Assembly: GCA_039090665.1 (NCBI GenBank)
Contig: JAWCSL010000005.1
Span: 1 to 49,363, forward strand
Source of the DNA: Candidatus Aenigmatarchaeota archaeon
Lineage (GTDB): Archaea > Aenigmatarchaeota > Aenigmatarchaeia > CG10238-14 > SCSR01
Direction of reading: 5' to 3'
DNA length: 49,363 bases
Shown here: in pieces, positions 944 through 2,655 of the stretch
How positions within the stretch are numbered: position 1 is the stretch's first letter
Layout: each line of letters opens with the position of its first letter
Notes under the pieces: generated by a model
The model's database searches: none
Told to the model about the DNA's origin: nothing
The model's input: the letters and a program-made list of their open reading frames with translations, nothing else
Translations under genes and position numbers: made by a program

Positions 944-1127
944 AATCTAAATTTAGCTTGAATTTAAAAGAAGTTTAACCTTCAGTTTCTTGTGTCATTA
1001 TAGACTTTAAAATCTCGTCTCTCTTTTTCATATTTTTCTCTAAGCTTAGATTTTTTAAAATTTTAAAAACCTAATAGCGGGGCCTGGATTTGAACCAGGG
1101 ACCTCCGGGTTATGAGCCCGGCGAGCA

Positions 1128-1138
1128 TTCTGTCAAAA
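1128..1138 (-). other. 11-nt relaxed BHB/BHL intron in the D-loop of tRNA-iMet
   Basis: CTGG[AG^T]TTTG ACAG[AA^T]GCTC; excision of TTTTGACAGAA restores a normal D-loop; central helix has 3 of 4 pairs. Confidence 0.8.
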
Positions 1139-1153
1139 CTCCAGGCTGCTCCA

Positions 1154-1176
1154 TTGCGGTTTCCTTTATTGGAAAT
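1154..1176 (-). other. 23-nt BHB intron at tRNA position 7/8
   Basis: GCGG[GG^A]TTTCC-AATAAA-GGAAA CCGC[AA^T]GGAGC: 4-bp central helix and two 3-nt bulges; cutting after the 2nd bulge nucleotide restores AGCGGGG|TGGAGC. Confidence 0.88.
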
Positions 1177-1235
1177 CCCCGCTAGAGCTTATGCCTTTCA
1201 TTGTCCCCGCTATTTGAATTAAATTGATGTTCGCT

Positions 1236-1347: not shown

Positions 1348-2655
1348 ATGATAATGAGGGATGTTTGGATAAGAATAATTAAAGATTTCAAGGAGTTTGA
1401 GCTACCAAAAATCATAGAAAGAGAAAAAACTATAAAGACAGAAATACCGATAAAAAGAGTAATTTCGATAATAGGACCGAGAAGGGTAGGAAAAACTTAT
1501 TTCATGTTCCAGCAAATAAGAAAACTTTTGGATGATGGTGTGGAAAAAGAAAGAATTCTTTACGTGAATTTTGAAAGCGATTTGCTTATAGGAGCCACTG
1601 TTGATGATTTAAGAAACATGATGGAAATTTTCTATGAAATATATCCAGAAAATAAAAAAAAGAAAGTTTATCTATTTTTCGATGAAATTCAAAACATTCC
1701 TGGCTGGGAAAGATTTGTAAGAAGTATTATGGATTCAGAAAATGTTCAGATATTTGTTTCAGGATCTTCTTCAAAGTTATTATCAAAAGAGGTGGCTACA
1801 ATGATGAGGGGTAGGAGCTTACCTTATTATATTTTTCCCTTTAGTTTCAAAGAATTTCTCAAAGCCAAAGAGTTTAAACTCGGAAAATATCTTTCATCTT
1901 CACAAAAAGCAAAGCTCATGAACTTATTGACAGAGTATGTAAATTTTGGTGGATATCCTGAAGCTGTGCTATACCCTGAAGAAAGAGAAAAAATTCTCAG
2001 AGAAATTTTAGATGTAACCATTTACAGAGACATAACAGAAAGATTTGGAATTAAAAACATTAAATTAGTAAAGCTTCTTTTTAGACATTTAACTTCTTCC
2101 ACTTTTTTTTCTGTTCACAGCTTTTTCAATTATATAAAATCTTTCGGAATGAAAGTCAGTAAGAACACTCTTTACAACTATTCAGAATATTTTTCAGATG
2201 CTTTAGTTGTGATATTTTTAAGGAAATTTTCCAAGTCTTATAAAGAGATTGAACAAACAAAACCAAAGATATATTTCATTGACAATGGCCTTCTCTATAT
2301 CAATGGAGTTGAAAGTAAAAGTAAATTGATGGAAAACCTTGTTTTAGTTGAAATAGTCAAAAAGGGTTTTTTGCCGAATGAAAATATCTTTTACTACCAG
2401 AAAAATAATCATGAAGTTGACTTTATAATAATAGAAAAAATGAAAGCCAAAAAATTGATTCAAGTTTGTTACGATTTGAGTGACATAGAAACAAAGAAAA
2501 GGGAAATCAAAAGTTTGGTAAATGCAATGAAAGAATTTGGATTAAAAGAAGGGTTGATCATAACTATGGATTTTGAGGGTGAAGAAAAAGTTGATGGTAA
2601 GAAAATCATTTATGTACCTTTATGGAAGTGGCTCATTTCTTCTAATGAGTTTTAA
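1348..2655 (+). CDS. AAA_14 / DUF4143-family ATP-binding protein
   Basis: Walker A GPRRVGKT, Walker B LFFDEIQN, SGSSS, GGYPE, and C-terminal KIYFIDNG...ENLV...EVDF typical of the family. Confidence 0.9.
   Translation: MIMRDVWIRIIKDFKEFELPKIIEREKTIKTEIPIKRVISIIGPRRVGKTYFMFQQIRKLLDDGVEKERILYVNFESDLLIGATVDDLRNMMEIFYEIYPENKKKKVYLFFDEIQNIPGWERFVRSIMDSENVQIFVSGSSSKLLSKEVATMMRGRSLPYYIFPFSFKEFLKAKEFKLGKYLSSSQKAKLMNLLTEYVNFGGYPEAVLYPEEREKILREILDVTIYRDITERFGIKNIKLVKLLFRHLTSSTFFSVHSFFNYIKSFGMKVSKNTLYNYSEYFSDALVVIFLRKFSKSYKEIEQTKPKIYFIDNGLLYINGVESKSKLMENLVLVEIVKKGFLPNENIFYYQKNNHEVDFIIIEKMKAKKLIQVCYDLSDIETKKREIKSLVNAMKEFGLKEGLIITMDFEGEEKVDGKKIIYVPLWKWLISSNEF

Follow-up and report, generated by a model that had tools for sequence, protein, structure and literature searches.

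A spare acceptor strand in the leader of an intron-split archaeal initiator tRNA gene, and its possible part in splicing directly behind the acceptor strand

The DNA analysed here (the window) is a contig of 49,363 nucleotides from a very small hot-spring archaeon of the Candidatus Aenigmatarchaeota (assembly GCA_039090665.1, contig JAWCSL010000005.1), contig C11 of a genome of 620,606 bases in 15 contigs with 31-36% G+C and a completeness of 90.6%, labelled G000 in the comparisons below. Its minus strand, to which the iMet coordinates below refer, carries an initiator tRNA-Met (iMet) gene (1183-1075, anticodon CAU at 1114-1112) split by two insertions, one of 23 nt between tRNA positions 7 and 8 (1176-1154) and one of 11 nt in the D-loop (1138-1128). 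A second copy of the 5′ acceptor strand lies upstream of this gene. The 7/8 insertion is well supported, from sequence comparison, as an intron of the bulge-helix-bulge (BHB) type with flanking helices h and h′ (hBHBh′), whose outer helix h is made by the leader. We propose that the outer acceptor copy is transcribed as the very start of the pre-tRNA and serves there as a surrogate for the 5′ acceptor strand, and that this would free the true strand for the BHB; we hold this with about as much confidence as doubt.

The two copies form a 9-nt direct repeat found by repeat search, TAGCGGGGA (TCCCCGCTA on the plus strand), at 1212-1204 and 1184-1176 with a spacing of 28, and only 19 nt separate the two acceptor-strand copies. 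The exact 9-mer is found at these two sites only in the window. With up to one mismatch there are six matches versus 1.84 expected, the other four being unrelated or the complementary 3′ strand; by our arithmetic, at 33% G+C, a given G+C-rich 9-mer would recur within 60 nt with a probability of about 5e-5. In its extended form the outer copy, AATAGCGGGG (1214-1205), is 100% complementary over 10 nt to CCCCGCTATT (1082-1073), whereas the true acceptor is an 8-nt arm pair, 1177-1184 with 1075-1082. An earlier note, drawn from the letters of the window, had pointed out both the duplicate 28 nt upstream of the tRNA 5′ end and a match of its extended form longer than that of the acceptor itself, and both observations hold. 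The repeats, the pair table and the minimum-energy fold agree on the parts: the spare copy AAUAGCGGGG (1214-1205), an acceptor strand with three extra bases, as the 5′ arm of a 10-bp leader-trailer helix, and CCCCGCU (1082-1076), discriminator A73 (1075) and trailer UU (1074-1073) as its 3′ arm, the latter resting on repeats and pair table. The inner copy, AGCGGGG (1183-1177), is the true exon 1, tRNA positions 1-7, and is invariant in six of six orthologues.

A BHB has been defined as a central helix that joins the four exon bases preceding the 5′ bulge to the four intron bases preceding the 3′ bulge, with two 3-nt bulges and flanking helices (bioRxiv 10.64898/2026.10.13.758758); the cut sites lie in the bulges. 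Twelve distinct genes with a 7/8 intron were gathered from related genomes and metagenomes. In our gene G2-G5 (GCGG) can pair with intron CCGC (1159-1156), and this central helix has all four pairs in each of the 12 genes, among them G.U variants and a single A-U variant with a matching base in the exon. The 5′ bulge consists of G6, G7 and the first intron base A, and the 3′ bulge of AA (1155-1154) and U8; the bulges are GGA and AAU in 11 of the 12 genes and GAA and AAU in one, and the 3′ bulge would shrink to 2 nt if A1 paired with U8. Helix h′ is the intron hairpin, UUUCC/GGAAA here and a hairpin in 11 of the 12, with one compensatory pair; the central helix shows one G.U change. Helix h would be formed by the last bases of the leader, GCUCU (1188-1184), with G9-C13 (GGAGC, 1152-1148), as seen in the fold and the 12-gene comparison. 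It has four or five leader:exon-2 pairs in the six close orthologues, where a flanking helix needs two or more, and 95% of its cells are paired in a four-sequence alignment, with one change from U.G to C-G. The 7/8 BHB presupposed by the earlier note thus appears to be real. Between the outer copy and this strand lies the linker CAAUGAAAGGCAUAA (1203-1189), in which GAAAGG is invariant in the six orthologues and AGGC (1196-1193) can pair with D-loop GCCU (1146-1143) in the minimum-energy fold. A K-turn or C/D-box reading of the linker (AUGA...CUGA in G003) was discarded after inspection by eye, the motif not being conserved in G000 and G006.

The second insertion, UUUUGACAGAA (1138-1128), is a putative D-loop intron recognised by comparison with intron-less relatives (e.g. 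locus L007, AGCCTGGAGTGCCC), its splice sites placed by eye. Its 3′ bulge is AAU like that of the 7/8 intron, and its length (11-13 nt) and sequence vary among orthologues. Its helix requires the D-stem and is therefore incompatible with helix h, so that the two introns would never be presented at once.

An intron at this position would create a conflict, in that the BHB central helix and the stronger 7-bp acceptor stem both want bases 2-5. On our proposal the first ten bases of the leader would bind the 3′ acceptor strand together with the discriminator and two bases of the trailer, and the last leader bases, AGGC...GCUCU, would pair with the D-arm and build the outer BHB helix; the splicing endonuclease would then be presented with a strict hBHBh′ motif. 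RNase P would be unable to remove the leader before splicing, the true acceptor stem not yet having formed. After splicing, and probably after trailer removal, the true strand would displace the copy and RNase P would remove the 28-nt leader. As the leader is needed for the BHB motif, splicing would have to precede RNase P cleavage. We infer this order of processing, the strand exchange and transcription from 1215-1213. An RNase P RNA is encoded in the genome (133 bits), so that a long iMet leader could be removed.

The transcript 1214-1066 has a minimum-energy fold of -60.3 kcal/mol (z = -4.3) that contains the 10-bp outer helix, the leader:D-arm helices AGGC:GCCU and GCUCUA:UGGAGC, and the intron hairpin. 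An RNA begun at 1203 is instead predicted to close the acceptor stem and form the D-stem; its intron then stands out as a side hairpin, and the BHB is missing. In constrained ensembles the probability of the true acceptor stem is 0.00 with the copy versus 0.30-0.96 without it in all six orthologues, and that of the central helix together with h, with versus without the copy, is 0.30/0.06, 0.30/0.05, 0.88/0.61, 0.15/0.04, 0.42/0.10 and 0.21/0.00. When the copy was replaced by 40 random genomic 10-mers, the native value was reached in 0, 0, 2, 2, 2 and 0 of 40; these replacements were preferred to permutations of the ten outer bases, a poor control because G-rich permutations still pair with CCCC. 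The folding makes the mechanism physically plausible and is not proof that it operates.

For the copy to act in this way it would have to be transcribed. An A-rich BRE (B recognition element)-like AAAGA (1248-1244) followed by a TATA box, TTTAAATT (1243-1236), is conserved in six of six close orthologues. For calibration, TATA-type hexamers were counted before the first ATG of 459 G000 open reading frames (ORFs) of at least 150 aa. They peak at -30, -29 and -28 (16, 11 and 12 sites versus mostly 1-7 elsewhere), from which a sizeable share of the G000 mRNAs appear to be leaderless. Applied to the hexamer at 1243, the calibration predicts a start at 1215-1213, in agreement with the earlier note, which had this TATA box place the start at the outer copy, and coinciding with the first base of the leader-trailer helix (1214). 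In G000, G003, G006 and L144 the helix begins within the predicted start window, which in L124 is placed 2 nt upstream of the first helix base.

Spare copies and acceptor-proximal insertions tend to occur together. Among the 37 tRNA genes of G000, an exact second acceptor copy within 120 nt upstream was found in two, iMet and tRNA-Ile(UAU), and just these two have an insertion right after the acceptor strand (copy in 2/2 versus 0/35 of the others); the chance of such a coincidence is 1 in 666 by our arithmetic. One further gene has a match with one mismatch at -48, probably by chance. The Ile gene (contig C8, 29712-29851, minus strand; loci L171 and L172) has two insertions, one directly after the acceptor strand, and shows GGGCCCG at 29851-29845 (outer) and 29831-29825 (inner), 20 nt apart. 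Its AAUGGGCCCGGA can pair over 12 bp with UCCGGGCCCAUU, and its leader CUAGGCU, ahead of the inner copy, is complementary to the D-arm. Intron and copy are both present in G000 and in G001, where the copy, GGGCCUG, pairs through G.U.

Over the loci collected from relatives, the copy is present in eight of nine genes with an acceptor-proximal insertion versus one of 44 without, counts that include related genes and perhaps stand for four or five independent lineages. The eight comprise four iMet, two Ile and two tRNA-Lys genes, and copies turn up in four tRNA species whose acceptor sequences all differ. Both Lys genes lie at one locus (L189, contig C50 of G021). In each of them the acceptor strand GGGCCCA is immediately repeated, at an offset of 7-8 nt, and position 8 is followed by a short insertion, the 3′ end of which, GGGC, can pair with G3-C6. 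The ninth gene (L019, G052) is ambiguous. It has a perfect AGCGAGG, a partial TAGCGA 8 nt later, and then a 14-nt stretch before GGTAGAGC, which by its sequence may be either a 29-nt 7/8 intron or a spare copy with a mini-intron inside the acceptor stem.

Pairing of the copy with the 3′ strand is retained. The outer helix keeps 10, 9, 10, 9, 8 and 10 of its 10 pairs in G000, G002, G003 (identical in G005), G006, L124 and L144; the distant L067, with copies only 13 nt apart, keeps 9 of 10. This makes 8-10 pairs in seven of seven genes, a small and related sample. The L067 copies differ from each other, AGCGGGG upstream and AACGGGG in the exon, and both fit CCCCGUU. The differences between outer and inner copies at the internal positions 1-6 (G002 at position 1, L067 at position 2, G001-Ile at position 6) are all G.U-compatible. 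The outermost pair covaries: G000 and G002 have A-U, the other four orthologues G-C. Pairs were counted on the four sequences that align end to end, with 97.9% of cells paired and two compensatory pairs; L124 and L144, whose 3′ ends were misaligned by a T-arm intron, were covered by a scripted pair table.

Several results weigh against the proposed surrogate role. The copy is not necessary, since it is missing from five of the 12 distinct iMet genes with a 7/8 intron, whose leaders offer no 10-mer better than 6/10. Those genes are predicted in the closed-acceptor fold, with a probability of at least 0.73 and a central helix probability of at most 0.14; they are presumably spliced and may rely on co-transcriptional folding. 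Two genes have a copy and no 7/8 intron, so it is not specific either: an intronless iMet (L029, G048) has AGCGAGG 28 nt before AGCGAGA, at the predicted start, and L024 (G049) has TAGCGGGGT twice, 12 nt apart, along with anticodon-stem and T-arm introns. Part of the folding result follows from the design, since any sequence complementary to the 3′ strand would compete with the true acceptor strand. The decoy fold remains 2.5-6.0 kcal/mol better than the true acceptor fold even after splicing and trailer removal, so strand exchange must be driven from outside the nearest-neighbour model, for which tertiary folding, proteins or capture of a minor conformer by RNase P would be candidates. The covariation score was reached by 47 of 500 shuffles, and the covariation of the outermost pair is one event among few related sequences. 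The outer copy, at 74% mean identity among the close orthologues, is only slightly better conserved than the spacer (70%) and on a par with the linker (75%), while the inner copy is 100% conserved.

The idea of the earlier note that the leader sequesters the 3′ acceptor strand, freeing the true 5′ strand, thus stands in part: folding, start prediction, covariation and association agree with it, and the copy-less genes, the intronless L029 and the stability of the decoy do not. Its expectation that the duplicate would be confined to genomes with the 7/8 intron is borne out as a tendency, not as a rule.

Of the other readings, the one that survives best, which we nevertheless think unlikely, is that the copy is a by-product of the origin of the locus, by duplication of the 5′ end or by insertion behind an ancestral acceptor strand, and is now a functionless upstream copy in decay. 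The outer copy stands where an ordinary 5′ end would be relative to the promoter. The Ile intron and its copy, both absent from the very close G002 and from G003, G006, G007 and eight more distant relatives, look in G000 and G001 as if they came from one event. The low conservation just given would also be expected, as would the loss of the position-7 pair in three of seven outer copies and the copies without a 7/8 intron in L029 and L024. A decaying relic, however, accounts poorly for the persistence of the copy in L067, where leader and intron are otherwise unalignable, for a trailer that changes in step with the leader at the outermost pair, for wobble compatibility at all three internal differences, and for recurrence in four tRNA species with four acceptor sequences. 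A duplicative origin and a present function are mutually compatible.

Less probable again is that the leader-trailer helix serves mainly as a timer or shield, holding off RNase P and RNase Z, or exonucleases, while other steps are completed. The helix takes in the discriminator and two trailer bases and begins at the predicted first transcribed base, the intronless L029 has a copy too, and leader pairing with the 3′ end that extends the acceptor stem inhibits RNase P in Escherichia coli (PMC9433436). A general shield would not be expected to be confined to genes with acceptor-proximal insertions, and yet an exact copy is missing from the other 35 G000 tRNA genes and concentrated in the same way among the collected loci. 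This reading also overlaps with the surrogate role, which likewise predicts delayed RNase P cleavage.

The remaining points against transcription of the copy concern the promoter, and they are the case for regarding the outer copy as untranscribed promoter-spacer DNA, which seems to us improbable. A rival TATA-like hexamer, TTTAAT (1223-1218), would place the start at about 1195-1193, downstream of the copy. It stands 40 nt before the true 5′ end, typical of ordinary G000 tRNA genes, which have a TATA hexamer at -31 to -41 and predicted leaders of about 1-20 nt. It scores at the 48th-53rd percentile of the promoter profile in G000 and G002, about equal to the upstream hexamer at the 59th. The G000 Ile gene is equally ambiguous, its best-looking TATA being one that would start transcription after the copy. 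Against this, G003 lacks TTTAAT, and in G006, L124 and L144 it scores no higher than the 4th percentile; in these four orthologues the conserved upstream promoter reaches the 93rd-99th percentile. GCGGGG would be unusual between TATA box and start, where G or C makes up 1-21% per position of the promoter profile, and covariation with the trailer makes sense for RNA only. A de novo motif search of tRNA upstream regions gave A/T-rich noise only. Three metatranscriptome read sets and one contig set from the same or a related study held no read of this organism on 800-1500. The runs gave 0, 0 and 7 reads; the seven reads and five contigs cover 1075-1126 only, with 2-4 mismatches and an unlike continuation, so they come from the initiator tRNA of another organism. 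The TATA-like elements at 1216-1225 and 1236-1245 form an inverted repeat with each other (10 nt, 90%).

The alternative offered by the earlier note, in which the true first exon would be the outer copy and a nearly leaderless transcript would lose 51 nt up to U8, or nested introns, is the least likely and is disfavoured by comparison: the outer copy does lie at the predicted start, is followed by the same GGA, has a GCGG that could pair with intron CCGC and would give an identical mature sequence in G000, G003 and L144, but flanking helices are lacking (upstream AAAUA is unpaired with GGAGC, and CAAUG is unpaired beside CCGC), the leader right before the inner copy forms helix h in all close orthologues, by inspection no new BHB arises after a first splicing, both candidate strands being G-rich, and the outer copy misfits the 3′ strand in several genes (G1.U72 in G002, A7xC66 in G006, U7xC66 in L124, G2.U71 in L067) where the inner copy is always perfect. 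With GGCGGGA in G002, AGCGGGA in G006 and AGCGGGU in L124, the outer copies there are no proper acceptor strands, and the inner copy must be the exon.

Three further ideas were dropped. Once the first splicing is done, no second BHB can form that would take off the leader, as judged by inspection of the sequence. Absence of RNase P, which would make the outer copy the mature end, is ruled out by the RNase P RNA and by the leaders of ordinary tRNA genes. A relic of an integration (att) site does not fit the 19 nt between the copies or the absence of an integrase or element DNA nearby, the neighbouring genes encoding an AAA_14/DUF4143 ATPase and an NTPase_1 protein.

More tentatively than for the single gene, and leaning somewhat against it ourselves, we suggest that the small archaea of this group have a general class of self-copy leaders, combining a sense copy of the acceptor strand with an antisense to the D-arm. 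Such leaders would act as a built-in RNA chaperone that refolds the precursor into a strict splicing substrate, forces splicing before 5′ maturation, and opens to introns the otherwise inaccessible positions immediately behind or within the acceptor stem. In a wider sense, pairing of leaders with the body of the tRNA seems, by complementarity, to be common in the group. Among the iMet leaders of L006, L009, L012, L015, L038, L086 and L169, many have CUCCAGG or CUCUGGG-like stretches complementary to D-loop CCUGGAG, and in L015 leader and trailer are complementary, GUGGGAU to AUCCCAC. At L013 (contig C4 of G047) the iMet gene has its 3′ part, from the D-loop to CCCCGCTA, first, then AA, then AGCGGGGTAG. 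The complementarity of its flanks, GATAGCTACAGCTG and CAGCTGTAGCTAT, resembles that of permuted tRNA genes, and this initiator tRNA looks circularly permuted.

The closest known systems are the split and permuted tRNA genes of Nanoarchaeum equitans, Caldivirga, Thermofilum and red algae, in which sequences outside the mature tRNA pair to build the BHB (PMC4090602, PMC4033280). Here too the leader would supply the outer helix h. In those genes the flanks are cut by the endonuclease and the pieces joined, whereas this gene is contiguous, its leader would stay after splicing and have to be removed by RNase P, and a sense copy of the acceptor strand would pair with the 3′ acceptor strand and not with the splice region. 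Non-canonical archaeal BHB introns (not at 37/38) share the 4-bp central helix, the two 3-nt bulges and the flanking helices (bioRxiv 10.64898/2026.10.13.758758); the differences here are that the exon-side helix would be made by the leader and that a second leader element would neutralise the competing acceptor stem. Pairing between leader and 3′ end in E. coli and synthetic RNase P riboswitches, in which engineered leaders mask the cleavage site, likewise set the timing of RNase P through pairing at the base of the acceptor stem (PMC9433436, PMC8925977). They use 2-7 leader bases beside the cleavage site, while here a full alternative acceptor strand lies 28 nt upstream. Integrating plasmids or viruses leave direct repeats of tRNA gene ends (PMC3293823), and like these att-site repeats the spare copy is a partial copy of a tRNA 5′ end upstream of an intact gene. 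It differs from them in the short interval between copies, in having no integrase near and in that the intervening bases pair with the D-arm. Full-text literature searches, with subscription journals and supplements outside their scope, found no description of an acceptor-strand copy in a leader or of a leader-built helix for an acceptor-proximal intron.

The iMet leader is plausibly one more variant among flanking sequences that shape a splicing substrate, an interpretation that agrees with the computational tests run. The positions of archaeal tRNA introns are usually explained by the capacity of the local sequence to form a BHB. An intron directly behind the acceptor strand would be expected to be nearly impossible, the strongest helix of the tRNA competing for the same bases. 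If our proposal is true, the leader is a simple solution in cis: it provides the outer helix that is otherwise missing and also a substitute partner for the 3′ strand. Where introns can live would then be decided by sequence beyond the mature tRNA, and an order of processing would be imposed, with splicing before RNase P.

Genes of this kind also have a practical side, since they escape tRNA finders and their 5′ end can be misannotated on account of the spare copy. ARAGORN run on the window did not report the iMet gene, and the Rfam tRNA match is partial (model positions 9-63, window 1083-1142) and, because the two introns interrupt the gene, falls below the gathering score (27.2 versus 29 bits). 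In archaeal initiator tRNAs the first pair is A1:U72, and the anticodon stem ends in three G-C pairs at its foot. In this gene A1183 pairs with U1076, the anticodon stem CCGGG/CCCGG is present, and the true acceptor pairs 8/8; once both insertions are taken out, the sequence lines up base by base with iMet genes of relatives that lack introns. By these features 1183-1075 is an archaeal initiator tRNA-Met gene. Exons 2 and 3 run from U8 to A73 (1153-1075) with no encoded CCA, as given by the partial Rfam match and the alignment with relatives. Oligo-T terminates archaeal transcription, and a T5 run at 1069-1065 is the likely terminator.

A single splicing-endonuclease gene was found in the genome (contig C12, 23832-24353; locus L192, ORF 1474-2040, minus strand). 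Its product, of 188 aa, has both EndA domains and matches over its full length the Methanocaldococcus jannaschii homotetramer subunit (1a79). Cleavage of non-canonical introns has been ascribed to the (alpha-beta)2 and epsilon2 endonuclease types only (PMC5829648), yet G000 has many non-canonical introns. With introns allowed, ARAGORN mislabels several interrupted G000 tRNAs as SeC, Pyl or Stop. The ORF at 1348, which diverges from the iMet gene, is preceded at about 30 nt by a separate TTTAAA and looks leaderless.

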